Virus record (IMG/VR): IMGVR_UViG_3300037067_019204
Coordinates: 64,001-128,000 of that record
DNA: 64,000 bases
Direction: 5' to 3' (one strand)
Source: a virus
Lineage: Duplodnaviria; Caudoviricetes
Part shown: in pieces, positions 12,073 to 57,568 of the stretch
Numbering within the stretch: the stretch's first letter is position 1
Layout: each line of letters opens with the position of its first letter
Made by a program: the position numbers and the translations under genes
Notes under the pieces: model-generated
Database searches by the model: none
Told to the model about the DNA's origin: nothing
Seen by the model: only the letters and a program-made list of their open reading frames with translations

Positions 12073-12092
12073 AAAATATTAGGAGATATAAT

Positions 12093-12251
12093 ATGAAAGA
12101 TAAAAAAGACAATGTTAAAAAACTTATTGAAGATATGATTACACGAGTATTTGGTGGTGCTGTTCCTGAAACAGTAATACGTCCCCTTGTTGACAAAATA
12201 GACGCAGTTTACTCTGTAGTAAAAGAAGAGAAAAAATCAACCAGAAAATAG
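12093..12251 (+). CDS. Small hypothetical protein (52 aa, not in ORF track)
   Basis: AGGAGA RBS, MKDKKDNVKKLIEDMITRVFGG...; fills the operon gap. Confidence 0.6.
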   Translation: MKDKKDNVKKLIEDMITRVFGGAVPETVIRPLVDKIDAVYSVVKEEKKSTRK

Positions 12252-12257
12252 TGATTT

Positions 12258-13187: not shown

Positions 13188-13189
13188 TA

Positions 13190-14473
13190 ATGTCTGATCA
13201 AACAAAAGAAGCCATAAGTTTAAAAGATATAAAATCTCTTTTTACTTTTTCTCCTGAAGATTTTGCTCTTACCTCAAAAGATTTAGGTGATGTTGCTCTA
13301 GATCAACAACCTCCTGTTGAACAAACAGAAGATATTACACCTATTACAAAGCAAGCACCACCACGTCCTAAAAGAGTAAAAAACCAACTATCACCCTTTT
13401 TTGATTATAGTATATCTGATTTGGATTTTCATTTAGATGAATTTGACCAAGCTGGGAATAGAAAAAAAGAATTAGAAGAACAATCTAGAGAACCAAAAAA
13501 AGAACCACCTATTGAAGAGGAAGTAACTGTTTCAGAAGTAAGGGAAGAAACAGGAGAAGCACAAGAGTATCCCTATAAATTACATTTACCCCCAGAATTA
13601 GCAACAAGAATTGGAGAACCTACTGTGGATCATTCATATTCTGCTCTTATGTATCTTCAATCTTTAGGATATAAAAAATTTGACTTTTTTGCAAATCCAG
13701 CGCATACACATAAATATGATGTTTGTGATGCTTTATCACGAATGAGTCCGTGGAGTTTAGATTATGTATTAAGAGATGCAGAAAGTCATTCACAATTAAA
13801 AGGATACCCAGTAGCACCCCTATTTCATTTTGCACATGTTAATTGTCAGGGGTATGTAGTTGTATCTCCTCCTACTACTATAGATGATATTCCTGATGAT
13901 GCTCCCGGTTTGCACATGTGGGAAGATGAATCTGAAATAAGAAGAGAAAAAGAAACTTTATTATCAAAACTTGCCCCTGTTATTGTAAATAGATTTACAT
14001 TAGCTCCTAATATGTTTGAGAAAATTCAAACAATGCAGATTCCTTCTACATCAACTGTTCGTTTACATGAATGGTATGAAACACTCCCCATTAGAAAGAA
14101 AAAAGGAAGTCAATGGAATCATAATGTAAAACCAGTGAAAGTCAAAACAACTCTTTTTATTAGAGATAAGTTGGGTTTGGTTCAACTTTTAAATAAAGAT
14201 ATGGTTGGGTTAGAAACTGAATCATACAATCAAATTTCAAAAGTATTTTTTCCATCATTGGAAATAAATGTAACTGTTCCTATTAGTGGAATAGAATCAT
14301 TACCTTTAAAAATAGCTTTAAGTGGAGATGCAAAAGAAGGTTCTTTTGTTTTGATTGAAGATGAAGATCTTGGTATTTCTTTAGGACAAGTTGGTGAAAA
14401 TTTGTATGTCTATGATCCTTCTTTTGATATGATTGTAGAGACAGATGATTGGCAATTATTAGAAACTGCTTAG
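13190..14473 (+). CDS. Hypothetical protein with MuF/head-morphogenesis-like Cys/His motif
   Basis: Acidic N-terminus; DVCD...PLFHFAHVNCQG resembles the C...HPNCRC motif. Confidence 0.4.
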   Translation: MSDQTKEAISLKDIKSLFTFSPEDFALTSKDLGDVALDQQPPVEQTEDITPITKQAPPRPKRVKNQLSPFFDYSISDLDFHLDEFDQAGNRKKELEEQSREPKKEPPIEEEVTVSEVREETGEAQEYPYKLHLPPELATRIGEPTVDHSYSALMYLQSLGYKKFDFFANPAHTHKYDVCDALSRMSPWSLDYVLRDAESHSQLKGYPVAPLFHFAHVNCQGYVVVSPPTTIDDIPDDAPGLHMWEDESEIRREKETLLSKLAPVIVNRFTLAPNMFEKIQTMQIPSTSTVRLHEWYETLPIRKKKGSQWNHNVKPVKVKTTLFIRDKLGLVQLLNKDMVGLETESYNQISKVFFPSLEINVTVPISGIESLPLKIALSGDAKEGSFVLIEDEDLGISLGQVGENLYVYDPSFDMIVETDDWQLLETA

Positions 14474-25679: not shown

Positions 25680-26819
25680 ATGGCAAGAAAGACAACTCAA
25701 CAATTTATTATTGATGCTAATAAAATACACAATAATTTTTATAATTATGAGAGGGTTGTGTATATAAATAGTAAAACAAAAGTTTTAATAAAGTGTCCTA
25801 AACATGGATTATTTTCTCAAGAACCCCAATCTCATTTAGATGGAAAAGGGTGCCGACAATGTTCTATAGAAAGAACGAAGGTTAGGTGTAGACTTACTTT
25901 AGGTAAAGTAAAAGAACGTTGTAAATCCATAAATTTGGAATTTTTAGATACTCATTATATTAATAATACAACTTTATTTAAGGTGAAATGTAATATTTGT
26001 GGATGGGAAGGATTTATTGCACTTAATAGTATTTCTCGTAGGTTAGGATGTCCTAAATGTTCTCAAGGATTGGGGGAACGTATATGTCGAGAATATTTTG
26101 AGCAAATATTCAAAAAATCTTTTCCTTCATGTTTTCCAAAATGGTTAGGGGGTCTTCAATTAGATGGATACAATGAAGAATTGGGGATTGCCTTTGAGCA
26201 TCAAGGAAGACAGCATTATAAAATAGGATCTATTTTTAGCAAAAATAAAAGAATATTTAAGAATATACAAAAAAGAGACAATATAAAAAAAGATTTGTGT
26301 ATAAAAAATAATATAAAGCTTTTTATAATTCCAGAAATTCCTTTATTTACTAAAATAAATGATATTAAAGATGAAATAAAAAATCAATCAATAAATTTAG
26401 GTATTATACTTCCTTTAGATTTTAATGATATTATTATTGATACTTCAAAAGTATATAACCCCAATGATATTAGTAGATTAAATGAACAAAAAATAATAGC
26501 TCAATCTAAAAATGGAGTATGCTTGTCAAATGAATGGCTTGGTTGGTCAACTAAATTATTATATAAATGTGATAAAAACCACGAATTCTGGGCTACACCT
26601 TTTAATATAAAATTTAATAGAAAATGGTGCAGAAAATGTAGTATTAGCAAATATAGAAGAAAATCTGTTCTACAATATGATCTTCAAGGAAATTTTATAA
26701 AAAAGTACGAGTCTATTTTAGAAGCTGAAAAAAAAGTGGGTGTTGGGGGAATTACTTACTGTTGTAAAGGAGAGAGGAGAAGTGTTGGTGGATTTATTTG
26801 GAAATATTGTGTGGAATAA
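25680..26819 (+). CDS. Free-standing homing endonuclease (Zn ribbons + PD-(D/E)xK/Vsr-like + NUMOD1)
   Basis: CPKHG...GCRQC, GCPKC, GE..CR, LDGYN...AFEHQG.QH, C-terminal VLQYDLQG...GGFIWKY. Confidence 0.75.
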   Translation: MARKTTQQFIIDANKIHNNFYNYERVVYINSKTKVLIKCPKHGLFSQEPQSHLDGKGCRQCSIERTKVRCRLTLGKVKERCKSINLEFLDTHYINNTTLFKVKCNICGWEGFIALNSISRRLGCPKCSQGLGERICREYFEQIFKKSFPSCFPKWLGGLQLDGYNEELGIAFEHQGRQHYKIGSIFSKNKRIFKNIQKRDNIKKDLCIKNNIKLFIIPEIPLFTKINDIKDEIKNQSINLGIILPLDFNDIIIDTSKVYNPNDISRLNEQKIIAQSKNGVCLSNEWLGWSTKLLYKCDKNHEFWATPFNIKFNRKWCRKCSISKYRRKSVLQYDLQGNFIKKYESILEAEKKVGVGGITYCCKGERRSVGGFIWKYCVE

Positions 26820-29963: not shown

Positions 29964-31085
29964 ATGATGTTATTTAGACCAAAAGAGGAGTTGCATTCTG
30001 CAATGAAAGATGCTATTCAGATTATTAGTATTGGGCAATGTGGTTGCAGAATTGGCAAGGGGTTTGAAAGTTTAGGAATTCCAGTAATGTATATAAACTC
30101 TGATGAAGTTGACTTTAGAAACTTCGGAGTTTCTTCTGATAAAATGTTGCTTATTGAGGGATCTGGAACAGGTGGTTCTCCTACGAAAGGAGCCAAAATC
30201 TTTAAAAGATATAAAGAGCAAATTCTAGAATTTGTTCTTACCCGTTTGGATGATGATAAGATGGTGTGGGTAATCTTTGGGGGAGGTGGTGGTACAGGTA
30301 ATTCTATTGGTCCACTTCTTATAGACTATCTACTATCACATAAATATCCAACAGGATGTATATCTACTCTTCCTTCTTCTAGATATAATATTTTGGCAGC
30401 AGACAATGCCCTTAAAACTCTACGTATTTTAAAAGATATGCCATTAAATATGTTTGTACTGGCTGATAATGATCTTCTTGAAGAAAAAATTGGATTAGGC
30501 CAAAGCAATTGGTGGCAAAAAGTAAACCAGCATATTATATTGCACATTTCTTCTATATTTGATATTTTGCGTGAAGGAAAAATGACACAAACAGGATTGG
30601 GGTCTGTGGATAGGGGAGAAATAATGCGTATTCTCCAATATGGTAATGGAATGGCAGATGTTCGTACTACTTATTTGACACTTGATGAATTTAATCAGGA
30701 TGATACAACTATAACCAATAAATTGTTTTCTCCTTCTTTAATTGAGGGATACTCATATAAAACTACTAAAGCATACCTTGTCAGTGTTGATGTTCCTATA
30801 ATGGGTGGTTACACCGACCATGCTAAAAAGATTTTTGATTTAACAAAAGAAGTAGCTGGGACTGCTGTATCAAGACTTGGAATGTTTGTTGATCCACTTC
30901 TTACTAATTCAATAAAGGTAACATTAATTAATGCAGGTCTTTCTTTTCCAAAAACAATTCAACTTAGGATTAATAATCTTCAAAGGGATGAAGGAAGATT
31001 TATAGAGAAAAAAAATAGAAAAGATTCAATGGATTTTTCAAATATAGAAAATAAGTTCATTGATGATGATAATTTTACAATATAA
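29964..31085 (+). CDS. Tubulin/FtsZ-family GTPase (TubZ/PhuZ/CetZ-like)
   Basis: IGQCGCRIG, INS...D, GTGG, tubulin signature GGGGGTG, DN, T7-like VDRGE. Confidence 0.85.
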   Translation: MMLFRPKEELHSAMKDAIQIISIGQCGCRIGKGFESLGIPVMYINSDEVDFRNFGVSSDKMLLIEGSGTGGSPTKGAKIFKRYKEQILEFVLTRLDDDKMVWVIFGGGGGTGNSIGPLLIDYLLSHKYPTGCISTLPSSRYNILAADNALKTLRILKDMPLNMFVLADNDLLEEKIGLGQSNWWQKVNQHIILHISSIFDILREGKMTQTGLGSVDRGEIMRILQYGNGMADVRTTYLTLDEFNQDDTTITNKLFSPSLIEGYSYKTTKAYLVSVDVPIMGGYTDHAKKIFDLTKEVAGTAVSRLGMFVDPLLTNSIKVTLINAGLSFPKTIQLRINNLQRDEGRFIEKKNRKDSMDFSNIENKFIDDDNFTI

Positions 31086-34910: not shown

Positions 34911-36113
34911 ATGAAAAAAATAAAAAACAATAAAAAAGATTTAGATAAAAAATCTTCTAAAACGAAAAATGAAATTAAAAAGGAAATTGGGGAAAAAATA
35001 GATGTTCTTATTAAGGATTCTAAATCTTCAAAAAAAAGATTTGAAAAAATTAAAAAAGATTTAGAAAGTAAGAAAATTAAAACTACAAACAAAGCAGAAA
35101 AAAATGAAATTGATTCAAAAATAAATAGTGTGGATGATGTGTTAGGGGATCTTAAATCTCATGTAAAAAGATTAAAAGATAAAAAACCAAAGAAAGAAAA
35201 ATCTAAAAGTAAAAAATCTAAGCCAAAGAAAATACGCCCACCAAAAAAGAAAACACCTGAACAAGAATTTATTGCCCTTATAAAAGAAGGAAAACCTAGT
35301 TTAGAAGCATTCAAAGTTATATTTGATAATATCCAGACAGGTATATTTGATAGTATTCTTGAGTTATCACCTATTTTTGAATTTTATATAACTGAAAATA
35401 ATGCTATGGTATGGACCAAGGAAGAAAATCAAATATTAGCACATTCAAACTGTGAGGGAGAATTGGAGCTTGTAGAGGATGAAAAAGAAAAACAGATTGC
35501 AGTACCTTATGCTACTATTGGTGGTGATTGTGTCTTTCCTTTATCAAAAATTAAAAATAAAAAATCTATTTCTTATATTAAGGAAATGGAAAATTCAATT
35601 ATAACTAAAATAAGTGCTGATATAAAAGAAAAACTGATTAGTGCTATAGTAGAATTAGGAGATTTTGCAGACAAAAAGCATATTTTTCGCTACAAAAATA
35701 AAAAAAATAAAAATTCATTTTTTAATTTTATAATTAATGCTTTTGCTAAAACACCTATAAACATATATGGGACATTTCTTCTTTCCCAAGAAACAAAAGA
35801 TATACTTATAAAATATAAAGAAGACATGAAACAACAAACCTCAGAAGAAGATGGGGAATATATTATTGTTCAAAATAGTATAGATATTATTATAGAGAAT
35901 AGTGTTTTGTATAAAAATTTAGCATTAGGTGAAATTTATTGTTTGGTTTATTCACCACATGGTAAACCTTTTGGTTATGCTGCTTTAAGAGAACTAATGG
36001 GGGTTTCTTCTGATAAATTTGTACTTGGTCAGCCTTGTTATGGGTATAGTGTTTTTTGTATGTTATCTTATGTAATCCCAAATATTCAGCAAGTATATAA
36101 AATTATATTATAA
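34911..36113 (+). CDS. Lys-rich N-terminus fused to a divergent HK97-fold major-capsid-like domain
   Basis: First ~115 aa very basic. C-terminal part has IAVP.ATI....FPL..I and GEIY...FG...LRE......YGYSVF.......N patterns recalled from encapsulin-like phage capsids. Adjacent to terminase. Confidence 0.4.
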   Translation: MKKIKNNKKDLDKKSSKTKNEIKKEIGEKIDVLIKDSKSSKKRFEKIKKDLESKKIKTTNKAEKNEIDSKINSVDDVLGDLKSHVKRLKDKKPKKEKSKSKKSKPKKIRPPKKKTPEQEFIALIKEGKPSLEAFKVIFDNIQTGIFDSILELSPIFEFYITENNAMVWTKEENQILAHSNCEGELELVEDEKEKQIAVPYATIGGDCVFPLSKIKNKKSISYIKEMENSIITKISADIKEKLISAIVELGDFADKKHIFRYKNKKNKNSFFNFIINAFAKTPINIYGTFLLSQETKDILIKYKEDMKQQTSEEDGEYIIVQNSIDIIIENSVLYKNLALGEIYCLVYSPHGKPFGYAALRELMGVSSDKFVLGQPCYGYSVFCMLSYVIPNIQQVYKIIL

Positions 36114-36122
36114 GCGGTTCAT

Positions 36123-39100
36123 ATGGCATTAGGTGATAAATTATTAGATCCCGGTTTTAACCCAACTGATCCATCACGATCAAAAATTGATGGCTTTCCT
36201 TATTTTAAAAGTGTAATAAAATGTCCTGTTACTTTTACCAATGATATTATTGAATACGCAGAGAGCAAGGATTTCATCGGGGGTAAACTTCGCCCTTTAC
36301 AAAAATTATTTCTGGAAGAACTTTTTTCAAGAGATACTTTGGGCAATTACAGATATACTGAAGGTGTGCTGTGTTCAGGAATGCGCGGAGGTAAGACGCT
36401 TATAAAAGGCACACCTTTGCTTATGTATAATGGCACAATAAAAAAAGTTGAAGAGCTTCATCTTGGTGATTTAGTAATGGGTCCAGATTCAACACCTCGT
36501 ACTGTATTAGAAATACATAGTGGTGTGTCGGAGCTTTTTGAAATACAACAATCTTGTGCAATGACATATACTGTTAATGAATACCACATACTTTCTCTTA
36601 AAAAAGCCCAATCAGCTAAAAATGCAGATTTAAAATCACGTAATAGCAGGGGACGTTTTCCCAACGAACCAGAAATTGTTAATATACCAATTAAAGATTA
36701 TTTAAAAAAATCTAAGAAATGGAAATATTTCTTTAGGGGGTACAAAGCAGGACTAATAAATTTTCCAATTAAGGAAGTTTTATTAGATCCTTACTTTCTA
36801 GCTTGTTGGCTTGCCGATGGTACATCTATAGCCCCAGAGATAACATCTCCTGATATAGAAATAAAAAGTTATTTACAAGATTTTGCAAATAAGAACAATT
36901 TAAGATTATCTGTTGGTAAGAAAAAAGGAACAACAGCAGAAACACTTCGTTTATGCCGCATAACGGGAATGGCAAATCCAATTTTAGATAAATTAAAATC
37001 TTTAAATGTCTACAATAATAAACATATACCATTAGAATATATTGCAAATAGTAAAGAAATAAGATTACAAATATTAGCTGGGATGCTTGATTGTGATGGT
37101 TATTATACAAAAAAGCATGGATATGAAATAACATTAGCTAATAAAACATTGGCATATGATGTTAAACGTATTGCTGATACTTTAGGATACAGGACACACA
37201 TAAGACATAAAAGAACAACATGTAATTATAATAATTTTGTTGGGGATGGTTGGAGATTATCTATTTATGGAAATGTTTGGGAAATACCATGTAAAGTAGA
37301 AAGAAAAAAGTATGTTTACAATGGAAAGTTTTCAAATAAGGAGCAAGGTTTATCTTCTCTTAAAGTAACTTCGATTGGACAAGGAGAATATTATGGAATC
37401 GGTGTTGACAAAGATAACCTATATTGCCTAGCCGATGGTACTGTAACACACAATTCTTGGTTAGCTGCTTTAATTAGTACATATATGACTCAATTCATGC
37501 TTCAGTTTAATGACCCTGCTGTCCAATTTGGGCAATCACCCGGAACTCGTCTTACTGCACAATGTATTGCCACAACAGAGATCCAAGCAAAAGAAACAGT
37601 TTTTGCCCATGTAGAAAGTTTGATTTCAAAAACAGATTGGTGGAAAAAATATATTTCTTATTTGGTGGAAAGGGAAACTGCTGAAAATAAAAAAGGTCAA
37701 TTATTTACACAGTTTAAATTAGCATTTGAATTTCCTGAAAAAAGTTTAGCCATACTTTCTTTGCACTCAAACTCTGGTGCTTTAGCTGGTAAAACAAGTT
37801 ATTGTGTTGTTCTTGATGAGCTTAGTCGATTTGATGTGGCAGAAGGGAGCGTACAAACAAGAGAGGAAAAAAGAACAGCCGATGCTGTATACTCTACTGT
37901 AACACGTTCTTGCTCAACACTGGGTGCAATAAGTAAAGTTGTAACCATATCTTCTCCTATGTTTGAAGACGATTACACCATGCAATTGGTTGGAATGGCT
38001 GGGGCGTGTTATGTTAATCAAATGGCATCTATTATAAATCCTTTACGAACAAAGTATGATAGTAAAAGAGCACCTAGCTTATATGCTATGCATGCTACAA
38101 GTTTTGAATTAAATCCAAAAACAGAAGATAATCCAACAGGGCTATCAGAAGATGACCCACGATTTATTAATGAAAAACAAAAGAATCCTGAGACATATAG
38201 ACGTGACTATTTAGCTATACCACCTGCAACTATTAATCCATTTTTTGAATATCCAGAACGGATTGATAGGGTTATCCATAAAAGAGATAAAATGGTATTA
38301 TTTTCTGATAAAATAATAGAAGAAATGATTCAGAGTGATCATGGTGCTATTCAACGTTTATACATAGGAAAAAAAGTATTGCCTTTGATTCAAGATAGAA
38401 TGAAGAAATATTATGTTTGTGTTGACCAAGGAGAAAAGAAAGACCATTTTACATTAGCAATGGGACATGTTGAAGAGATCCCTATAGAGACTCAAAAAGA
38501 AAGTGGGGAAAAAGAAGAAAGAATAAGACTTAAAATAATTATAGATTTTGTTGAGGGCTGGGTTCCTGATAAAGAAAACCGTGTTACAGTTTCATTTCAA
38601 AATGTGGAAGAATCTATTAAGCTTCTTTGCACATGGTTTAATGTTGGTTCGGTAGCGTATGACCAATGGGCATCTATTGAATCAATCCAAAGATTGTTTT
38701 CAGAAGGTATTTATACTCAACAACTTGGTGCAACAATTGAAATGTATGATATTTTTAAACAACTTATTTATCAAGGACAAATTGAACTTCCAGATCATGA
38801 AATTCTTTTACGTGAACTTAAACAATTAACAAATATAAAATCTAAAAAAATTGAACACCCTGTTTCTGGAAGTAAAGACTACTCAGATGCTTGTTGCCGT
38901 GTTATTTGGTTGTGTTATGAAGAATATATCCTTAATACAATAGAGGGTAAACATATTTTACCCATGCGCCAGAGTCTTCCAACCATACGATCAGTTGCCA
39001 CTTTTTATGAGTTAGCAAGAATGAATCAGAACAATCCCCATGCCGCTATATGGGGGCAGAGTCGAGCCGGAGAAGGGGTGTTTGGAGACGGGATGGTCGT

Positions 39101-39137
39101 GCGGCAAAATGTGATGCCAAATTTAAAAAATAATTAA
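36123..39137 (+). CDS. terL: Terminase large subunit interrupted by an intein
   Basis: Walker A GMRGGK|S split by intein, Walker B VVLDE, ISSP, nuclease CVDQG...DHF, YDQW, SKDYSDA. Confidence 0.88.
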   Translation: MALGDKLLDPGFNPTDPSRSKIDGFPYFKSVIKCPVTFTNDIIEYAESKDFIGGKLRPLQKLFLEELFSRDTLGNYRYTEGVLCSGMRGGKTLIKGTPLLMYNGTIKKVEELHLGDLVMGPDSTPRTVLEIHSGVSELFEIQQSCAMTYTVNEYHILSLKKAQSAKNADLKSRNSRGRFPNEPEIVNIPIKDYLKKSKKWKYFFRGYKAGLINFPIKEVLLDPYFLACWLADGTSIAPEITSPDIEIKSYLQDFANKNNLRLSVGKKKGTTAETLRLCRITGMANPILDKLKSLNVYNNKHIPLEYIANSKEIRLQILAGMLDCDGYYTKKHGYEITLANKTLAYDVKRIADTLGYRTHIRHKRTTCNYNNFVGDGWRLSIYGNVWEIPCKVERKKYVYNGKFSNKEQGLSSLKVTSIGQGEYYGIGVDKDNLYCLADGTVTHNSWLAALISTYMTQFMLQFNDPAVQFGQSPGTRLTAQCIATTEIQAKETVFAHVESLISKTDWWKKYISYLVERETAENKKGQLFTQFKLAFEFPEKSLAILSLHSNSGALAGKTSYCVVLDELSRFDVAEGSVQTREEKRTADAVYSTVTRSCSTLGAISKVVTISSPMFEDDYTMQLVGMAGACYVNQMASIINPLRTKYDSKRAPSLYAMHATSFELNPKTEDNPTGLSEDDPRFINEKQKNPETYRRDYLAIPPATINPFFEYPERIDRVIHKRDKMVLFSDKIIEEMIQSDHGAIQRLYIGKKVLPLIQDRMKKYYVCVDQGEKKDHFTLAMGHVEEIPIETQKESGEKEERIRLKIIIDFVEGWVPDKENRVTVSFQNVEESIKLLCTWFNVGSVAYDQWASIESIQRLFSEGIYTQQLGATIEMYDIFKQLIYQGQIELPDHEILLRELKQLTNIKSKKIEHPVSGSKDYSDACCRVIWLCYEEYILNTIEGKHILPMRQSLPTIRSVATFYELARMNQNNPHAAIWGQSRAGEGVFGDGMVVRQNVMPNLKNN
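36396..37454 (+). mobile_element. Intein with LAGLIDADG homing endonuclease (353 aa), first residue Thr
   Basis: Begins TLIKGTP...V.EL..GD.VMGPD; block B VNEYHIL; WLADG and LAGMLDCDG; ends LADGTVTHN followed by Ser+1. Confidence 0.9.
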
Positions 39138-39176
39138 TAAAAAAACGGGTAAAGACCTTTCGATCTTTACCCGTTT
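39138..39176 (-). terminator. Rho-independent terminator, strongest on the - strand, probably bidirectional
   Basis: AAACGGGTAAAGA/TCTTTACCCGTTT stem; T7 tract on the - strand. Confidence 0.8.
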
Positions 39177-39320
39177 ATCAGAAGTAAACGCACAGGATTG
39201 TGAGTGGTAGCAAAAAAATGTGTGATCTATTTTGCCCCTTCTCAAAAAGAAATTGTCTGATACAATTTCTCCTTTAAGGCCAGTCTTCTTAATGCAAGAA
39301 GAAACTAAACGGTTGGCCTA
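39138..39320 (-). ncRNA. Candidate tracrRNA-like structured RNA
   Basis: Three hairpins, then an anti-repeat (39180-39197) complementary to the CRISPR repeat, then the terminator. Possible TTGAAT.../TAATAT promoter at 39325-39351. Confidence 0.55.
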
Positions 39321-39360
39321 ATTTATATTATATTTTTTCTTATATATTCAAGGTGCCTAT

Positions 39361-39571
39361 CCAGTCTTCCTGTGCGTAAGGGCTTCTAGTCTGCTGTTGT
39401 CTCTTAAAGTATACTAAACATCCCGTCTTCCTGTGCGTAAGGGCTTCTATCAGAAAGAAACATGTAATGTATTCCTTTTGAACCCGTCTTCCTGTGCGTA
39501 AGGGCTTCTAAGAAACATTAATAGATTGTAGCTATTAGAATACCCCGTCTTCCTGTGCGTAAGGGCTTCTA
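39361..39571 (-). CRISPR. Mini CRISPR-like array: 4 repeats (28 nt), 3 spacers (33 nt), no cas genes in window
   Basis: + strand repeat CCCGTCTTCCTGTGCGTAAGGGCTTCTA at 39361 (CCA variant), 39422, 39483, 39544; 61-bp period, unique spacers. Orientation inferred from the degenerate left repeat and the - strand operon. Confidence 0.85.
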
Positions 39572-39673
39572 AGGCCCACAGCTTGTGACAAACATTGAGT
39601 ATATAAGCATTAAAATAAGTGTAATCATTGCTGATATAATAACAGAACAATATATCCACAAAAACATATCCAT
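39569..39673 (-). CDS. 34-aa single-TM peptide whose TAG stop is the first 3 nt of the CRISPR repeat
   Basis: GAGGTG RBS; MDMFLWIYCSVIISAMITLILMLIYSMFVTSCGP-stop; not in ORF track. Confidence 0.55.
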   Translation of the reverse strand: MDMFLWIYCSVIISAMITLILMLIYSMFVTSCGP

Positions 39674-40051: not shown

Positions 40052-40264
40052 TTATTTATTATTTTTAATAAAATAATTTTTGTCATTATCTTTTCTAATC
40101 CAAATTCCATACCAACCATTATCTTTTGATATAAAAAGATAGCCGGGTTGGTTATCAAAGCAAATAGTTTGTTTTCTAAAACAATAAAAAGACCATGTTT
40201 TATTTCCCAATATATCTTTTGCTTTATTTGTTAATGGTTCAATATTCATAGTTATCACCACCAC
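40052..40264 (-). CDS. Hypothetical protein
   Basis: ORF in - strand operon. Confidence 0.55.
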   Translation of the reverse strand: MVVITMNIEPLTNKAKDILGNKTWSFYCFRKQTICFDNQPGYLFISKDNGWYGIWIRKDNDKNYFIKNNK

Positions 40265-48566: not shown

Positions 48567-48818
48567 CTACTCATACCCCAATATTACAGGAGTATACAAA
48601 GTTACAATAGTGCCAATTAAAGCACCTAATATATAGGCTACCCTATCATAATTATTAGCCAATGCAAGGTCTTTTATATTCAAAGTCCACATCAGTGATA
48701 TAGCCATACTTAACGATATTGCACATTTACGGTAATGATTGGCTATCAACCATATATTAGCAGTAGTAAGAGATACTATCGAAAACGCTCTTAAAGCAAT
48801 ATAGAATTTTTTTTTCAT
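48567..48818 (-). CDS. Small multi-TM membrane protein
   Basis: Three hydrophobic helices; YILGALIGT. Confidence 0.6.
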   Translation of the reverse strand: MKKKFYIALRAFSIVSLTTANIWLIANHYRKCAISLSMAISLMWTLNIKDLALANNYDRVAYILGALIGTIVTLYTPVILGYE

Positions 48819-50506
48819 TATTTCATCCTTATAGAAAACAGCTTATTATCCTTAGCAAAATATGTTTGGTTGCCCTTATTAAACAATTTTGTTCCAGATA
48901 AGGTAGTATCTTGTATAAGCTTTACTGTATTATTATCTTTCCTATTAAAGAACAATTCAGTAAACCCATCTTCATTTACATATATACAAATTCCATTATC
49001 CAATACAGTAAAGTTAATTTCAGTATAAGACACATCCTTTGTTTCTATGATAGAATACTCATACTTATCATTAAATTTAAATATAAATCTATTATAGATA
49101 CCACCGTGTTCTCCAATAACAATTAAAATATTGTTATGATATTTAGCATTGACAATACGGAATCCTTCTAATTCTTTTATTTTTATTTGTTGGTGTACTC
49201 CGCTTTCAGGAAATATTGAAATATAATATAATCCCAATAGATTTTGAATTGCAACCCCATCAAATATTTGGGTAGCATTTAATAGAATATTACAGACAGG
49301 GCGAATATAAACAAAAAGTCTACCCTTTGTTTCAGTAAACATAATTTCACTTATATTTTCTCCATGAACTATATATAAACGATTATTATAAGAGAACAAA
49401 CTAACCCCTATAAAGTCAAAAGGAATGTCTTGCCCTGCTGTAACATTATACAATTGTAGTCTATTATTTTTTATAATAGCTGATACAACATGTCCATATA
49501 TTGGAGATATTCCAATATGAGAATAGGAAGCAACTTTTTTATCCAATCTTTTGTCTATAATTAATCCATCACTTGTTAATATTATTTCATGACCGCCCCA
49601 AGACTGAAAATTTATTATATCAAAGTCATACTCGCCCACTTCTTTTATATCAAAATTATCTGTTCCTGTGATAACACGAACTCTCATAGGCTTGGTAATT
49701 ATAACAGCATCCAAACTTGGAGGAAAGGGAAATCGAACCCCATCTTCAAATATAGATTTATACCAAGTCCGATATGTTTCTGGTATTGTATTATTAAAAT
49801 TATCTACAATAGGGGGAAGACTAACATCCGTATTAAACACGGATATATTATTATCCATCCGTTGCTCTAAGTTTTTAAATGTAGGATGCTTTCCTTTATA
49901 AGGATGTATCCCGGTTAACATTTGAAATGTTAGTATACCAAATGAAAACCAATCAGTGTTTGCATTAAATTTATTCTTGCAATGCCTATCACGAATAGAA
50001 TCCATTATAGCAGTTGCAGGATATGATCGTGTTTGATAACTATCAACATCAATAAAATAAATTTTATTAAAGTTAGACCCATCTAATAAAAAATTCATTT
50101 CATTCAAATCAACAATAAGAATGTTATTATCATGGCAATGTTGGACATTATTTCTAAATTGTTGTATTAAAGATAATAATTCCTTTGTTCTTAAATTATT
50201 CCTATTCTTAAATGCTTTAGTAAAAACCTGACACAATGCTGTTGTTCTCTCAATATACTTCATAGTATATCCAATAGGGGTGCTACGTTCATCAAGAAGA
50301 ACGTGTTCCGGTTTTATTATCTCGGGAGAAGTTAAAGAAGATAATTCCGCTATCTTTGCTTCAGGAATCATATGTGATGGTTTAATATATATTTTATATG
50401 CTATGTTTCCTTTAACATATATACTTCCCTCACCACCACTGGCAATAAAGTTTCTTTGAGTTAAACTTTCTGGGCCTTTACCTTTAACTATTACTTTCAA
50501 CATCAT
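48818..50506 (-). CDS. Ser/Thr protein kinase (TerY-P-associated type) with beta-rich C-terminal domain
   Basis: SGGEG.IY, AYKIY, IVDLNEMNFL, IDVDS, TDWFSFG, GIHPYKG. Confidence 0.85.
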   Translation of the reverse strand: MMLKVIVKGKGPESLTQRNFIASGGEGSIYVKGNIAYKIYIKPSHMIPEAKIAELSSLTSPEIIKPEHVLLDERSTPIGYTMKYIERTTALCQVFTKAFKNRNNLRTKELLSLIQQFRNNVQHCHDNNILIVDLNEMNFLLDGSNFNKIYFIDVDSYQTRSYPATAIMDSIRDRHCKNKFNANTDWFSFGILTFQMLTGIHPYKGKHPTFKNLEQRMDNNISVFNTDVSLPPIVDNFNNTIPETYRTWYKSIFEDGVRFPFPPSLDAVIITKPMRVRVITGTDNFDIKEVGEYDFDIINFQSWGGHEIILTSDGLIIDKRLDKKVASYSHIGISPIYGHVVSAIIKNNRLQLYNVTAGQDIPFDFIGVSLFSYNNRLYIVHGENISEIMFTETKGRLFVYIRPVCNILLNATQIFDGVAIQNLLGLYYISIFPESGVHQQIKIKELEGFRIVNAKYHNNILIVIGEHGGIYNRFIFKFNDKYEYSIIETKDVSYTEINFTVLDNGICIYVNEDGFTELFFNRKDNNTVKLIQDTTLSGTKLFNKGNQTYFAKDNKLFSIRMK

Positions 50507-52616: not shown

Positions 52617-53442
52617 GGTCATACTCCCAATCACAGAATCTTCTCAATGAAAAACTTTCTGGGATTTTGTTTTTATGGTTATTCTTGTCATGCATTTGTT
52701 CCACAAACTGAAAACATTTTGAATCGGTGTTTACATGTGAAGTTATATATGAATTGTAGTAAGTCTTTATTGATTCTTCTATTTCATTATATGTAAACCC
52801 AAGTTCTCCTTCATCAGTTTGTCCTTCCCACAAACCCGCTGACGGAATTTTGTTTATAAGGTTTTCTGGGAGATACTTTGTATCAACAAAATATTGAAGT
52901 ACTTGGTAAACCTCACTTTTAAAAAGTTCACCTATAGGATTACAATCAACACCACCATCCCCATACTTTGTAAAGTATCCAATAAAGTTCTCACTCAGAT
53001 TATCTGTTCCCATAACCCGCACTTTATCATCAAAGAATGAATTAGATAATTCCTCCACAATAGAATACAGAATAGTCATTCTTAATCTGGCCTTCATATT
53101 TCCTTTTGTCAGTTTTGTGGTGGGATGGGAAGACGGATTTTTCCAAATCTTTGTTATAATTTCCTCTTGGAGCATTTCAGCTATTCCACCAACAGGAACT
53201 GTTATTGAATTTATACCTAAATGTTTAGCCAGTTTTGTGGAATCTGAATTAAATGTAGACAAGTCAAACCTATCTGCTGGCATATGAACACCAAATACTT
53301 TATTATTTCCCAGTGCCTGTACACAAAGAGTTGCCACAAGAGTAGAATCTGCTCCACCACTTAAACCAATGACAGCTATATCCGTGAATTCTTTAATTTG
53401 TTTGGTTATGCTTTTTATAAGACCCTGAATATCTGTTATCAT
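52603..53442 (-). CDS. nadE: NH3-dependent NAD+ synthetase
   Basis: GLSGGADS, GNMKARLRM, GYFTKYGDG, PSAGLWEGQTDE.ELG; no glutaminase domain. Confidence 0.92.
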   Translation of the reverse strand: MITDIQGLIKSITKQIKEFTDIAVIGLSGGADSTLVATLCVQALGNNKVFGVHMPADRFDLSTFNSDSTKLAKHLGINSITVPVGGIAEMLQEEIITKIWKNPSSHPTTKLTKGNMKARLRMTILYSIVEELSNSFFDDKVRVMGTDNLSENFIGYFTKYGDGGVDCNPIGELFKSEVYQVLQYFVDTKYLPENLINKIPSAGLWEGQTDEGELGFTYNEIEESIKTYYNSYITSHVNTDSKCFQFVEQMHDKNNHKNKIPESFSLRRFCDWEYDHDYK

Positions 53443-54266
53443 TAATTATCTCCTAGATAAATTGTTCCCATAGATAAATCATCATAGTATTTCCAACCTA
53501 AAATATTGCAATCCTTTTTGAATCTATTTAATCTCCGTTGAACAAATCTTCCAGTGAACAATTTAAAATTTGTTAATTCAGTTATCACTTCTATAAAACT
53601 TACAGGTTCTCCTGTTTTTATGTCAACAAAAGAATGGACTCCATCTGAAAACAAAGTAATCCATTCATAATCTTCTACAAGGAAAATAGATTTAAAAGAA
53701 ATTCCTTTTTTTAAAGTAGTGATTTCATACTTTTTTTCATATATATTATAGTGTGTATGAACAAACCCCTCTGGTTCAATTTTCAAATACCCACTTTTTC
53801 TATATTTATCAAGGCTATAAGATAAATATGCAGGATACCCATTGGGGTATACAACATTATATGCCTGTATAATTCCACTTTTTCTTTTTGTTACTAATAC
53901 TCCATCCCCCATCATATCAATAGATACATATTTTATTCTACTAATTATATTTTTAGTAGGGTCAAAAGGATATTTTGCAATTAATAATGTTGAATCAAAC
54001 ATGTATGGGTTTGTTTTTAGTTCATACTCATATTTTGTTTCCAACATTTTTAATATGGCTGGTGTAATTCCCCCAATTCCGGTTTCATCAATTAATTGGT
54101 CAGCACTTAGTGCAAGCAATCGTGCGCCCACATCTGTCATTTTAGATGAAGAGCACCCATCACATATAATCATGTGTGTACCCTCTGCCCCCGGAGTACG
54201 ACTGAGGGTATAGTCCTGACAAATCTCGTGAGAGCTACCTATAGTAAAAGCTGTATCTGTATTCAT
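53442..54266 (-). CDS. PP2C-family phosphatase (TerY-P-associated type)
   Basis: G.SH..CQD, CDGCSS, GDG, FSDG, DD. Confidence 0.82.
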   Translation of the reverse strand: MNTDTAFTIGSSHEICQDYTLSRTPGAEGTHMIICDGCSSSKMTDVGARLLALSADQLIDETGIGGITPAILKMLETKYEYELKTNPYMFDSTLLIAKYPFDPTKNIISRIKYVSIDMMGDGVLVTKRKSGIIQAYNVVYPNGYPAYLSYSLDKYRKSGYLKIEPEGFVHTHYNIYEKKYEITTLKKGISFKSIFLVEDYEWITLFSDGVHSFVDIKTGEPVSFIEVITELTNFKLFTGRFVQRRLNRFKKDCNILGWKYYDDLSMGTIYLGDN

Positions 54267-54298
54267 ATAACTTTTATATTCCTTTGTATTTGTTTAAA

Positions 54299-54326
54299 TT
54301 ATCGGCATTAAACTCAAAAAACTTTA
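54299..54326 (-). promoter_or_regulatory. sigma28 (FliA/SigD)-like promoter
   Basis: TAAAGTTTTTTGAGTTTAATGCCGATAA (TAAA-N16-GCCGATAA) upstream of the PP2C-nadE-pncB genes. Confidence 0.6.
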
Positions 54327-54337
54327 GTAAAATTATT

Positions 54338-54359
54338 ACGTTTATGGAGCCAAAATCGT
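54338..54359. promoter_or_regulatory. 22-bp palindromic motif, copy 4
   Basis: ACGTTTATGGAGCCAAAATCGT flanked by TAAAATTATT and ATTAATTTTA. Confidence 0.6.
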
Positions 54360-54366
54360 ATTAATT

Positions 54367-54519
54367 TTATTTCTTTTTAAACATATTGCATATAATCAAT
54401 GTAATTATGATAGTTAATAATATACTAACCACTATTCCTTCTGGTGTTGAAAGGAAAGGTTGACTTTCTGGGTATTTACTTGCATACCATGCATACATAG
54501 TGTCTCTCCATACTCCCAT
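54367..54519 (-). CDS. Small membrane protein
   Basis: AGGAGG RBS before ATG 54519; C-terminal TM. Confidence 0.55.
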   Translation of the reverse strand: MGVWRDTMYAWYASKYPESQPFLSTPEGIVVSILLTIIITLIICNMFKKK

Positions 54520-54532
54520 ATTGAACCTCCTA

Positions 54533-54573
54533 TTAAAAAATAAAGCTGGCCCACCCAAAGATGGGCCAGCTTT
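54533..54573 (-). terminator. Rho-independent terminator after the vWA gene
   Basis: AAAGCTGGCCCA/TGGGCCAGCTTT stem followed by a T-rich tail on the - strand. Confidence 0.8.
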
Positions 54574-54577
54574 CATA

Positions 54578-55327
54578 TTAAATGGTAAGAGAAAGAGGCT
54601 GACTTGGCGTTTTTTGGTTAAGAGATTGACTTTGTGAACTAATTGATTTGCTCACAAATTCTGCTAACCTTGCCAGTTTCTTATCTGTTGCTTCATCAAT
54701 ATTTATAAATTGAGTAAATCCTGCCTCTTGTTTGAATTTATCCAGATAATCTATAACAACAGGATTACTGACATTCATTCCAATTAGCACAGAAACAAGA
54801 GATTGAACAACCTCATCTTTCACTGCTTTTTGTAGAGATTCTCCAACCTTGTCCCTTCCATATGTTGAATCATTATTTACTCCATCTGTTAAAACAAATA
54901 GGATTGCATTAACATCAAAATCCTTATCTGTCAATGTTTTTCCATATGCAAGAGTTGCTTCTATGGCATTATATGAAGCATCATATAAGGCTGTATTACC
55001 ACCACAGTGCAGTATCCCTTTGTAATCATTTGGATTACAATTGGCCAATAGCTTATACCCATGTACTTCTTCTTCTTTGCTATTGAAGGTAAGAAGTCTT
55101 ATAAGAAGGTTATCTGGGCGTGGGCTATGCTTGCAAGCCCCTATAATTTCTTGAATACATTTTTCAAGATTGTCTTTGTACCCAGCTACACTACCACTTA
55201 CATCTGTTACAATAGTAACAAGGGTATATTCTGTAGCCTCCAAGTTTTCAAGTCGTACTGCTGAGTACTGAAAACTTGTTCCTTGAATTTTATTAACCTC
55301 TAAAGAATCATCATTTAGTTGTGGCAT
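54578..55327 (-). CDS. vWA (TerY-like) domain protein
   Basis: MIDAS DVSGS, GGNTALYDA, LTDG. Confidence 0.85.
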   Translation of the reverse strand: MPQLNDDSLEVNKIQGTSFQYSAVRLENLEATEYTLVTIVTDVSGSVAGYKDNLEKCIQEIIGACKHSPRPDNLLIRLLTFNSKEEEVHGYKLLANCNPNDYKGILHCGGNTALYDASYNAIEATLAYGKTLTDKDFDVNAILFVLTDGVNNDSTYGRDKVGESLQKAVKDEVVQSLVSVLIGMNVSNPVVIDYLDKFKQEAGFTQFINIDEATDKKLARLAEFVSKSISSQSQSLNQKTPSQPLSLTI

Positions 55328-55345
55328 ATTTTTCTCCTTAATTTT

Positions 55346-56158
55346 TTATTTCAGAAAATCAACTGTGGTTGAAACAGTCATTCCTTTTGAAACCATGCTT
55401 TTATAAAATTCTTCCGATTCCGGTTTTGAAGGAAGAACACAACTCATAGCATCTTCCAAAAGCACAATTTTTTTAACATAGCTGTCGTCTTTAAATTCAG
55501 ACACAAGGTCTCTCAGTGTGTTAAACACACAGAAATCCTTTGCTTCCCCAGCAACAGCAATCACATCTGCTTTTTCCAGTGTTTCAATCAATCTTGTGTT
55601 AACCTGTGTGCATGGGTCTGTTGGGTCAACAACATCTGCTCGAATGACACTGTAGTGTTCAGTGTAAGGATTACTGCCTTTTGTAACATAGTCCACCATT
55701 TTAAATGATGCTTCCCAATCCAGAAGCGCATCATATACTGCCGGATAAATACCATGACCTTGACTTCCTATAAGGCAATGGGGTGGCCAGATGCAAAGGG
55801 GGTATCGTCCGTTTTTATCAAGTGTCCTCACATATTCAAGACTTCTCTTGTAAAGAGAGGGAAGAGAGCTTGTCCATACCCCATTTTCCACATCCTTTAC
55901 TGTAATGGTGGTAAAAGGTGTTGGGTGAGCACCAGATGAATCTTTCCAAAAGATTGGATGTGCAATATCCACAAAATGATGGGTATCAAGTGTTGCATGA
56001 ATATCATTTATCTTTGGATAAATTCTCCTGATCATTTTTGATAACCTTTCCATATCTGACTCAGCCCCAGTTACATAAAGGCTACCGGGGTATTTAGAGT
56101 TTGGGGGATTACAAAAATCCTGTTGGCAATCAATCAAAAGCAAATCAACTTTAATCAT
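55346..56158 (-). CDS. pncA: Nicotinamidase/isochorismatase-family cysteine hydrolase
   Basis: IDCQQDFC, GSLYV.GA, DTH, WPPHC, KG, AGEAKDFCV. Confidence 0.8.
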   Translation of the reverse strand: MIKVDLLLIDCQQDFCNPPNSKYPGSLYVTGAESDMERLSKMIRRIYPKINDIHATLDTHHFVDIAHPIFWKDSSGAHPTPFTTITVKDVENGVWTSSLPSLYKRSLEYVRTLDKNGRYPLCIWPPHCLIGSQGHGIYPAVYDALLDWEASFKMVDYVTKGSNPYTEHYSVIRADVVDPTDPCTQVNTRLIETLEKADVIAVAGEAKDFCVFNTLRDLVSEFKDDSYVKKIVLLEDAMSCVLPSKPESEEFYKSMVSKGMTVSTTVDFLK

Positions 56159-56174
56159 ATACGTTTCCTCCGTT

Positions 56175-56393
56175 TTATTTTATTTCTGGTAAATAACAAG
56201 AACATTTATCTAAGTCTAATCGAGTTAAACTTCTTATATGACCTTTTAAAATATGATTAGGATCATTAACACTAGTAATAATACATGCTATGCGACTATT
56301 TGGGTGGTGTCTTCCAAAGAAGGATGAATCTGAAGTATGCCTTGTACTATAGGGACACCACGGTGTGCAACTAACAAATTGTATTATCTTCAT
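56175..56393 (-). CDS. Small Cys-rich paralog, family A (divergent)
   Basis: MKIIQ...CTPWCP...H...C...C. Confidence 0.55.
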   Translation of the reverse strand: MKIIQFVSCTPWCPYSTRHTSDSSFFGRHHPNSRIACIITSVNDPNHILKGHIRSLTRLDLDKCSCYLPEIK

Positions 56394-56690
56394 TTAAAAT
56401 TCCTTATAATCATAATATACACCACAATTGGGACAAACTGGTTCACATGGAACATAAGTATGACAAAACTTACACCATCGTCCGTGTTCAGGAGAAGCAT
56501 AATAAGTCATAGTCTGTCTAACTAATTTTTCTTTTTCAGCATCACTTATTGCATTTGGATTAGGCACTAATACTTTCTTTCTTTTGCTCTTTGAAAATAT
56601 AGATTTAACCCAGACTGTGATAGCAGATACTATGATAATTATTGTTGTAAAGTTTATTAATTTTTTTAAAAGACCATCTTCTTTTTGCAT
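56394..56690 (-). CDS. Membrane-anchored Zn-ribbon protein
   Basis: TM plus CKFC...CPNCG. Confidence 0.6.
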   Translation of the reverse strand: MQKEDGLLKKLINFTTIIIIVSAITVWVKSIFSKSKRKKVLVPNPNAISDAEKEKLVRQTMTYYASPEHGRWCKFCHTYVPCEPVCPNCGVYYDYKEF

Positions 56691-56706
56691 ATTTTACCTT
56701 TAAAGA

Positions 56707-56913
56707 TTAATCATATTTTAAAACTTTTAAATGACATTTTTTAGTAAACATTGTGTGTTTCCAGTAATCATTATGGGGATATAAATTACACACATCACAA
56801 TTAGAAATAGAAAAAGCTACACCGTGTGCATATAGTTGTATATCTGATGTAGCAACACTTAAAAAAGGACACCAAGAAGGACACTTATCTTCTATTTTTA
56901 TTATTTTACTCAT
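56707..56913 (-). CDS. Small Cys-rich paralog, family A
   Basis: MSKIIKI...CPSWC...C...LY....W...F...C. Confidence 0.65.
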   Translation of the reverse strand: MSKIIKIEDKCPSWCPFLSVATSDIQLYAHGVAFSISNCDVCNLYPHNDYWKHTMFTKKCHLKVLKYD

Positions 56914-56933
56914 TTATTTATACTATTTTGGAT

Positions 56934-57146
56934 TTAAAAATCCTCTAACTTTTTTAATACACATTTACGACTATATAAACAAATTTCAAACCAATCATAT
57001 TGGTCTTTTGTATAAAGAAAATTACCAACAGAATGACAATGTAGTGAACCCCCACTTCCATTAAGCATACTATATCTATGCAGATTATGATGCATTTCTT
57101 GACACCACGGAGGACATCTATTTTCTATTCTTATTATCTTGCTCAT
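56934..57146 (-). CDS. Small Cys-rich paralog, family A
   Basis: MSKIIRI...CPPWC...H...GGSLHC...LY...WF...C. Confidence 0.7.
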   Translation of the reverse strand: MSKIIRIENRCPPWCQEMHHNLHRYSMLNGSGGSLHCHSVGNFLYTKDQYDWFEICLYSRKCVLKKLEDF

Positions 57147-57149
57147 TTG

Positions 57150-57350
57150 TTATTTAAATATACAACCTCTTGTTGCAAATGCCCTATCAAACCAATTATA
57201 ACCATCATCTATATAGAGAAGCCAGTTAATCTTATTACAGCATAGTGTTCCTCCTGCTGGATTATTTATTGTATTCTCAGAATGATCTAAATGACCTTTA
57301 AGTATACACCAAGGAGGACACTTTTCTTTTATTTTTATTATTTTACTCAT
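57150..57350 (-). CDS. Small Cys-rich paralog, family A
   Basis: CPPWC...H...NPAGGTLCC...LYIDD...WF...C.F. Confidence 0.7.
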   Translation of the reverse strand: MSKIIKIKEKCPPWCILKGHLDHSENTINNPAGGTLCCNKINWLLYIDDGYNWFDRAFATRGCIFK

Positions 57351-57568
57351 TTGTTTTTTTTGGTTTGTTGTTTAAATACACACTCTTTGTCTGAAAATGA
57401 TCTTATAAACCAATCCTCATAATCATCTATATAAAGATTAATTCCGGTTAAGTCACAACACAATGATCCTCCTGCTGGGTTATCTCTTATTTCTCTAAAA
57501 TGATTTCGATGGCCTCTGAATTTACACCACGCAGGACAAATAATATCCGTCTTTATTATCTTACTCAT
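57347..57568 (-). CDS. Small Cys-rich paralog, family A
   Basis: CPAWC...H...NPAGGSLCC...LYIDD...WF..SF...CVF. Confidence 0.7.
   Translation of the reverse strand: MSKIIKTDIICPAWCKFRGHRNHFREIRDNPAGGSLCCDLTGINLYIDDYEDWFIRSFSDKECVFKQQTKKNK

Follow-up and report, generated by a model that had tools for sequence, protein, structure and literature searches.

The question raised by this locus is which nuclease, if any, makes use of a short CRISPR array that stands next to a structured RNA in a phage genome, with no cas gene at its side. The DNA analysed (64,000 nt, hereafter the window) comprises bases 64,001-128,000 of a 161,311-nt IMG/VR viral contig (IMGVR_UViG_3300037067_019204), which has a G+C content of about 30% and a CheckV completeness estimate of 65%. 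The element under study, named cassette A, consists of a mini-array (array A) followed downstream by the structured RNA, both on the minus strand. In the initial annotation this element was described as a "Cas-less" and undescribed module that might serve an unknown effector class. That description is not supported once the whole contig is considered: an intact 455-aa nuclease is encoded 90 kb away together with an adjacent array (array B), and the RNA of cassette A, which resembles a tracrRNA (trans-activating CRISPR RNA), carries the junction signature of the scaffold used by the family of this nuclease. We give a somewhat better than even chance to the reading that cassette A is an unlinked second tracrRNA plus array cassette for the phage's own Cas12f/TranC-like nuclease. 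Positions are those of the window, except where the contig is named.

Mini-array and structured RNA of cassette A

The following features were delimited in cassette A, listed here from 5' to 3' on the minus strand:

39361-39571, minus strand: CRISPR mini-array A, four repeats and three 33-nt spacers
39321-39360, minus strand: AT-rich gap of 40 nt, with TTGAAT (39351-39346) and TATAAT (39332-39327)
39277-39319, minus strand: stem-loop 1, whose 3' arm carries the 9-mer GAAGACTGG
39244-39274, minus strand: stem-loop 2, a 13-bp hairpin with perfect pairing, then a U-run
39200-39243, minus strand: bulged long stem, GAG.AA.GGGGCAAAA ... UUUUUGC.U.ACC.A.CUC, ending in CCACTCAC (39207-39200)
39179-39197, minus strand: two-part anti-repeat, UCCUGUGCGU plus CUUCUG
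39136-39176, minus strand: intrinsic terminator with a 15-bp stem (39176-39143), a GAAA loop and U7, also called by the terminator scan

The repeats of array A (R1, 39571-39544; R2, 39510-39483; R3, 39449-39422; R4, 39388-39361) are 28 nt long and follow one another with a period of exactly 61 nt. R1 to R3 are identical 28-mers, TAGAAGCCCTTACGCACAGGAAGACGGG, and R4 differs from them at one base, which is located in the 3' tag (..GACTGG). The three spacers show no in-register similarity to one another; array A thus has the composition by which CRISPR arrays are generically recognized, namely at least three near-identical repeats of 23-50 nt with unrelated spacers of similar length. This confirms the four repeats and three spacers that the initial annotation had placed on the minus strand, after the last gene of an operon. 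The repeat has a G+C content of 57% in a genome of 30% G+C, and no stable hairpin was found in it in either orientation, in agreement with the earlier remark that a strong hairpin is lacking. Tandem Repeats Finder reported nothing for array A, as was to be expected, since the repeats are split by unrelated spacers. Neither adjacent cas genes nor a leader were found at the array, which begins at the stop codon of a small open reading frame (ORF). The 9-mer GAAGACTGG at the end of R4 (39361-39369), which contains the variant T of this repeat, is found again in the 3' arm of stem-loop 1. The second copy is either a decayed fifth repeat (at a spacing of 81 instead of 61) or a mimic of the tag that pairs inside the hairpin.

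The 185 nt at positions 39136-39320 of the minus strand fold at -58.9 kcal/mol, compared with -35.0 +/- 3.9 kcal/mol for shuffled sequences (z = -6.15). The ~180-nt structured element with an anti-repeat and a terminator, proposed from inspection of the letters, is therefore present. Its anti-repeat consists of two segments: UCCUGUGCGU pairs with nucleotides 12-21 of the repeat (10 bp) and CUUCUG pairs with nucleotides 1-6 (6 bp); the internal loop between them contains 3 nt of the anti-repeat and 5 nt of the repeat. The duplex has an energy of about -23.6 to -24.4 kcal/mol, and seven nucleotides of the repeat (AGACGGG) stay unpaired before the spacer. A 2-nt linker, AA (39199-39198), separates the anti-repeat from CCACUCAC. 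When a repeat-spacer unit was cofolded with the tracrRNA-like RNA, the predicted duplex was part of the minimum-energy structure (-86 kcal/mol). The terminator would close the minus-strand transcript and lies also just past the stop codon of a convergent terminase gene. In type V systems a structured RNA bears a near-3' anti-repeat that leaves the spacer 3' of the duplex, and this is the arrangement found in cassette A; the analogy to type V tracrRNAs with 3' anti-repeats drawn in the initial annotation was thus apt. Searches of Rfam returned nothing at the gathering thresholds, and at E<=1 only a spurious microRNA match.

The AT-rich gap between array and structured RNA had been called promoter-like. 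The TTGAAT and TATAAT boxes are indeed there, and to this extent the description stood; on the other side, they are spaced by only 13 nt (18 nt to TATAAA) and a consensus scan made no promoter call. To judge from these motifs, the gap is a possible non-canonical promoter for the tracrRNA-like RNA.

Near-complements of repeat A at contig ~49,250 and ~130,350 fall within coding genes and were regarded as chance matches. The only copy of CCTGTGCGT beyond the array and the anti-repeat was found at contig ~130,340-130,365 (minus strand), within a 221-aa gene and accompanied by ..TTCTA. This site can pair with repeat A at -27 kcal/mol and was treated as chance; a role as regulatory target for the repeat of the CRISPR RNA (crRNA) is conceivable in principle.

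A single Cas12f1/TnpB-type nuclease in the contig

The initial annotation had recommended a search for effectors in the rest of the genome. Outside the window, this search revealed a RuvC nuclease and, beside its gene, an array:

contig 12,411-13,775, minus strand: 455-aa Cas12f1/TnpB-type nuclease, PF07282 (Cas12f1-like TNB domain) at 5.9e-25, 90 kb from cassette A
contig, beginning 83 nt after the nuclease stop codon: array B, six 32-nt repeats and 33-35-nt spacers

The RuvC D-E-D triad and the CxxC..CxxC zinc finger of this protein are intact. With 179 bits it exceeds the NCBIfam cut-off for guided_TnpB, and with 133 bits it stays below that for Cas12f2 (450 bits). Among solved structures, AsCas12f1 and CnCas12f1 are nearest to it (E 1e-54 to 1e-56). 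Exactly one TnpB/Cas12-type gene is present in the contig, and it is not adjacent to cassette A. Together with a guide scaffold that overlaps its stop codon and with array B, the nuclease forms a complete compact system that spans contig 11,960-13,985 on the minus strand. An energy scan for the anti-repeat of array B gave no outlier; a weak two-part anti-repeat emerged only through the family comparison described below. The spacer length of array A (33 nt) agrees with that of array B (33-35 nt). Directly upstream of the nuclease gene (13,800-13,985) there is, in addition, a ~170-nt structured non-coding stretch with a strong terminator.

By their sequence features, the nuclease and array B are a phage-borne Cas12f/TranC-like system of known kind. 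The phage is not effector-less, since the same contig encodes a Cas12f/TnpB-type nuclease whose guide-RNA signature is shared by the tracrRNA-like RNA of cassette A.

Guide architecture of the nuclease family

Homologues of the nuclease were located mostly on phage contigs, and many of them have mini-arrays beside the gene. The interval between gene and array is conserved in the family: it contains a first hairpin (hairpin 1), an A-rich linker (AAAA) and a GUGAGG...CC-A-CUCAC stem (stem 2) with a variable loop, and continues with a 2-4-nt linker and an anti-repeat to the neighbouring repeat, which keeps a 6-7-nt tag. Covariation was analysed in the two helices of the family alignment, which was fitted to a covariance model and in this way favours the structure: 97.8% of the cells are paired, compensatory changes occur in 7/12 pairs, and the score was reached by 0/500 shuffles. 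Two covariance models (R1 and R2, not to be confused with the repeats of array A) were built from 10 and from 24 family scaffolds, and among the loci fetched the ten-scaffold model detects 30 scaffolds. In 9/9 cassettes the hairpin 1 loop can pair with the final 5-7 nt of the repeat, with compensatory changes between loci, and this pairing amounts to a pseudoknot. Pairing of this kind with the 3' end of the repeat is characteristic of Cas12 tracrRNAs (bioRxiv 10.1101/2025.01.20.633832; PMC11246509).

A single nuclease gene is often accompanied by two or three scaffolds that serve arrays of different repeats. Two cassettes that differ in their repeats are present at locus L037; in L033 and L035 the gene has one cassette on either side, and L034 contains three copies of the scaffold. 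In L048 a second scaffold (6144-6260) is situated 2.3 kb from the nuclease gene, and after it come an anti-repeat, part of a repeat and one guide-like stretch; from this order of elements, L048:6144-6260 appears to be a natural stand-alone single-guide form. Downstream of the TnpB homologue of L034 (L034:4305-4480), the 18-nt unit ATATAAGAAGGACTGAAC occurs three times, at intervals of only 12-16 nt. These units resemble a primitive array, in which the 3' end of an omega-RNA scaffold has been duplicated and the guides are very short.

Comparison of cassette A with the family scaffold

One connection between the two loci is found at the junction of scaffold and anti-repeat. Counting both strands, the 161-kb contig has two copies only of the motif CCACTCAC: one forms the 3' strand of the stem in the scaffold of the nuclease itself, and the other lies 2 nt upstream of the anti-repeat of cassette A. 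The shorter motif ACTCAC occurs 22 times in the contig, and from this number the chance that one copy ends within 7 nt of a given site is ~5e-4. The pairing geometry was measured in nine family cassettes and in cassette A. In all ten alike, the anti-repeat starts 2-4 nt after ACUCAC, and 6-7 nt of the repeat remain between its paired part and the spacer. A second anti-repeat segment pairs with the extreme 5' end of the repeat in most of the family cassettes, as it does in A, and the strongest duplex of the ten is that of A (-23.6 kcal/mol).

The fold points in the same direction. With the anti-repeat kept free, the RNA of cassette A shows a hairpin, a U-run and a bulged long stem ending in CUC(AC), which is the topology of the nuclease's own scaffold; under this constraint the bulged long stem belongs to the minimum-energy fold. 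Stem-loop 2 occupies the position of hairpin 1 in the family scaffold, immediately 5' of stem 2, and the bulged long stem is the counterpart of the GUGAGG...CC-A-CUCAC stem 2 of the family. In terms of sequence and predicted structure, the tracrRNA-like RNA of cassette A has the 3' half of the family guide architecture. In stem-loop 1, the internal loop CCGUUU can pair with AGACGG of the repeat tag over 6 bp, a match that is not significant (chance 0.48).

Evidence against the proposed relationship and alternative explanations

Several results weigh against assigning cassette A to this nuclease. Repeat A is unrelated to repeat B, and sequence alignment of the A scaffold with the flanks of array B revealed no significant similarity. 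Both covariance models failed to match the A scaffold at E<=10 in the window (best local score, 1.3 bits), and the same models find the nuclease's own scaffold at 48 bits. The order of elements also differs, with array before scaffold and a terminator straight after the anti-repeat in A, and scaffold before array in all the family cassettes inspected. As for the pseudoknot, the equivalent loop of A (AUCAG) has no match to the tag, and the only 6-bp partner, that in stem-loop 1, is expected by chance with a frequency of 48%. In terms of energy, the anti-repeat of A, with -24.4 kcal/mol, is about the sixth-best locus of the contig and no outlier (32,104 windows; mean -8.8, sd 3.6); given this rank, it is notable mainly for adjoining the array (p about 0.01). 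The database searches that the initial annotation had proposed gave no support either. An array with the core of repeat A was absent from 185,579 species genomes, from 241 million metagenome records and from IMG/VR, and an exact 20-mer of the repeat had no match in IMG/VR. An 18-mer of the repeat gave 5 single matches in GTDB genomes and 10 in JGI metagenomes, which were rejected as real repeats, being single chance matches inside unrelated G+C-rich sequence or genes. No protospacers of the array A spacers were detected in GenBank phages, PLSDB plasmids or the contig itself, and the central 21-mers of each spacer had no exact match in IMG/VR; this absence is weak evidence, the habitat being thinly sampled.

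Both repeat:anti-repeat helices of AsCas12f1 are fully reprogrammable (PMC11246509), so that unrelated repeat/anti-repeat pairs in A and B would be tolerable for one nuclease. The occurrence, common among the family loci compared, of one nuclease gene with several cassettes of different repeats likewise appears to support the reading of A as a second cassette of the phage nuclease.

If array A were instead an orphan mini-array that borrows a host CRISPR-Cas system (type I-E, I-F or IV), its anti-repeat and CCACTCAC would be coincidental and the structured stretch would consist of terminator or stability hairpins of a convergent intergenic region. Virus-borne mini-arrays that use host Cas proteins are reportedly established (Faure 2019; Medvedeva 2019). 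The 28-nt repeat and 33-nt spacers have lengths that suit class 1 arrays, stem-loop 2 with its U-run could itself be a terminator, and both the energy rank of the anti-repeat and the failure of the family models to detect the A scaffold fit this explanation. Against it stand the lack of any array with the core of repeat A in the genome, metagenome and IMG/VR collections searched, the lack in the repeat of the hairpin that Cas6-type processing uses, and the position of CCACTCAC at 2 nt from an anti-repeat with a geometry identical to that of the family, which is very unlikely to arise by chance. We therefore regard the borrowing of a host system as unlikely. A related possibility retains the guide function and changes the partner: cassette A would be a guide-only module for a TnpB/Cas12-type enzyme of the host or of a co-infecting element, or for an undescribed effector in the missing third of the genome, rather than for the nuclease of the contig. 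Such a module would be a portable weapon that reprograms someone else's nuclease; we hold this to be decidedly unlikely. The cassette might, on the other hand, be what is left of a decaying TnpB/Cas12f-type locus after loss or replacement of its nuclease gene, perhaps still transcribed and no longer used. No nuclease gene is adjacent, the scaffold has diverged beyond detection by the covariance models, the last repeat is degenerate and a 9-mer from it turns up again in stem-loop 1, which would suit a decayed fifth repeat, no targets were found, and the cassette is located inside a ~900-bp strain-variable island. Decay would be expected to strike first the 10+6-bp anti-repeat, the long stems and the terminator, and all of these are intact; moreover, three G+C-rich repeats have remained identical over 28 nt in a 30% G+C genome, and the segment is 100% identical in two studies of different habitats and years. 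A relic is, on balance, improbable.

Two further explanations dispense with guide supply. In one, cassette A would be a decoy or counter-defence RNA in which a mimic of a repeat or of a tracrRNA sequesters or redirects the Cas12f/TnpB-type nuclease of a competitor or of the host. Phage RNA anti-CRISPRs built from repeat mimics have reportedly been described (Camara-Wilpert 2023), and cassette A does lack an adjacent effector. The known RNA anti-CRISPRs are solitary units, usually a single mimic of the host repeat; no such host repeat was found, and a full array of three distinct spacers with a matching tracrRNA resembles guide supply, which makes a decoy very unlikely. Among the three options offered in the initial annotation, the reprogramming of a distant phage effector is thus the one we favour, and the RNA anti-CRISPR and the unknown effector class found no positive support. 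The other explanation takes the repeats as protein-binding sites unrelated to CRISPR, such as iterons or a centromere- or packaging-related site beside the terminase. The position of the repeats beside the terminase, their period of 61 bp, which is near to six helical turns, and the absence of an adjacent cas gene would agree with this, yet the equal 33-nt unrelated spacers, the degenerate terminal repeat, the anti-repeat with a type V junction signature and the TnpB-type nuclease of the same genome would all be left unexplained; we consider such sites highly improbable. A type II (Cas9) reading was rejected on the basis of the family evidence, the length of the repeat (28 nt, not 36 nt) and the absence of any ORF with Cas9 features from the contig. 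The type II arrangement would comprise, besides Cas9 and a 36-nt repeat, a tracrRNA in which nexus and hairpins come after a 5' anti-repeat. The two contig ORFs of more than 1000 aa carry inteins, and Rfam gave no tracrRNA match. The pairing of A, with lower stem, bulge and upper stem, would fit type II, a resemblance that is formal only.

Comparison with known systems

The nuclease and array B fit the description of TranC, the transposon-CRISPR intermediate (Jin et al., Cell 2025; via PMC13565253 and bioRxiv 10.64898/2026.03.27.714800). As outlined in these sources, TranC is a TnpB-sized nuclease with a guide split into tracrRNA and crRNA, and it has short arrays (median ~5 repeats), no adaptation genes and some members on Caudoviricetes genomes. 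In the TranC loci described there, tracrRNA and array are beside the effector and the repeats are 32-38 nt long, whereas cassette A is 90 kb from the only nuclease gene and has a 28-nt repeat unrelated to that of the linked array. Cassette A differs also in its order, the array preceding the tracrRNA, which has its own terminator.

Type V-F Cas12f1 of the V-U3 group (AsCas12f1, CnCas12f1) contains the closest solved relatives of the nuclease. The likeness extends to a tracrRNA with a long anti-repeat near its 3' end, a two-part repeat:anti-repeat and a spacer located 3' of the repeat, and in AsCas12f1 the equivalent of the paired repeat is 28 nt long (PMC11246509). In contrast to Cas12f1 systems, the nuclease of the contig is named guided_TnpB and lies below the Cas12f2 cut-off, cas1, cas2 and cas4 are lacking, and no cas gene adjoins cassette A. 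The lack of Cas1 and Cas2, neither of which was found in the 161-kb contig, is usual for such phage systems.

Virus-borne mini-arrays and compact CRISPR systems encoded by phages are said to have been documented in Faure 2019, Medvedeva 2019 and Al-Shayeb 2020 and 2022. Cassette A is like them in that a large phage carries a short array which lacks adaptation genes and presumably targets competing elements. In classic orphan mini-arrays the repeat is a copy of that of the host and there is no tracrRNA of their own, whereas the repeat of cassette A matches no sequenced host and a tracrRNA-like RNA comes with it. With its full array and tracrRNA-like RNA, it also departs from the usual form of RNA anti-CRISPRs. 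Taken together with the family evidence, cassette A is most likely not a new class of RNA-guided system, and an undescribed class is unlikely.

Genomic context and strain variation

Two genes flank cassette A:

39569-39673, minus strand: 34-codon ORF encoding a small hydrophobic protein, last gene of the minus-strand operon
36123-39137, plus strand: 1004-aa ORF, large terminase subunit split by a Hint/LAGLIDADG intein, convergent neighbour

The TAG stop codon of the 34-codon ORF (39673-39569) coincides with the first three bases of repeat 1. This ORF also contains the promoter-like motif ATTACA-16-TATACT (39625-39598), ~25 nt upstream of array A. The 1004-aa ORF bordering cassette A was considered as a candidate effector and ruled out: it is the intein-containing terminase and stands outside the system. 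The large ORFs of the window that were scanned include SbcC-like, ribonucleotide reductase, PolA, RecA, DnaB, helicase, protein kinase, PhuZ-like tubulin, homing endonuclease, DNA-transfer protein and terminase genes, and no cas gene was detected among them. The earlier statement that no cas ORF is recognizable in the 64 kb was therefore correct for the window.

Contigs from a groundwater run, possibly the source run, and from a landfill run, which belong to two studies of different habitats and years, are 100% identical over cassette A and, for this reason, uninformative on spacer turnover. Contigs of related phages from both runs diverge past the terminase stop codon (~39122-39154) and match again from ~40052-40064. 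Array A, the tracrRNA-like RNA and two small ORFs thus constitute a strain-variable island of ~900 bp. A 15-nt AT-rich inverted repeat is present at the edges of the island (39126-39140 and 40052-40066). No relatives of the phage were found by a terminase-based search of IMG/VR or by a DNA search of GenBank phages.

Other genes of the contig were also recorded. A second intein gene, at contig 53,120-57,475 (minus strand), is a 1452-aa ORF with an intein splicing domain and LAGLIDADG, and several free-standing HNH and GIY-YIG homing endonucleases occur, at 8891-9952 and 25680-26819 of the window. Outside the window, at contig 34,947-36,581 (minus strand), a Ro60/TROVE protein with a vWA domain (1.8e-65) adjoins a PcfJ-like gene. 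A weak PhuZ-like tubulin match (29964-31085 of the window, plus strand) and a eukaryotic-type Ser/Thr protein kinase domain (48818-50506 of the window, minus strand) are consistent with a jumbo-phage lifestyle.

Proposed mechanism and implications

In the mechanism that we propose for cassette A as a second cassette of the phage nuclease, array A would be transcribed from the upstream operon or from the promoter-like site inside the small ORF, and the transcript would be processed into guides. The tracrRNA-like RNA would either be part of the same transcript as the array or have its own start in the AT-rich gap, its 3' end being given by the terminator (39176-39136). Its 3'-proximal anti-repeat would pair with each repeat through 10 bp plus 6 bp, and the 7-nt tag and the 33-nt spacer would be left 3' of the duplex, as in the tracrRNA:crRNA pairs of type V. 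Duplex and scaffold would then be bound by the 455-aa nuclease; alternatively, a paralogue encoded in the ~35% of the genome that is missing from the assembly would bind them. The nuclease would recognize the shape of the scaffold and not the sequence of the repeat:anti-repeat helix, a trait of this lineage (PMC11246509), and the spacers would direct it to three additional DNA targets, of which competing mobile elements are the most likely kind.

If this is true, the phage widens the target range of one miniature nuclease by means of a second tracrRNA/crRNA pair with an orthogonal repeat. The repeat:anti-repeat helices of Cas12f/TnpB-type systems would then be freely exchangeable in nature, as engineering had suggested, and guide cassettes could evolve and move independently of the effector gene. 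It would also follow that an "orphan" phage array should not be called effector-less until distant TnpB-type genes have been considered as its partner. Finally, cassette A and the nuclease's own cassette would represent a natural orthogonal scaffold pair for one 455-aa nuclease, which would be of practical interest for multiplexed compact editors.

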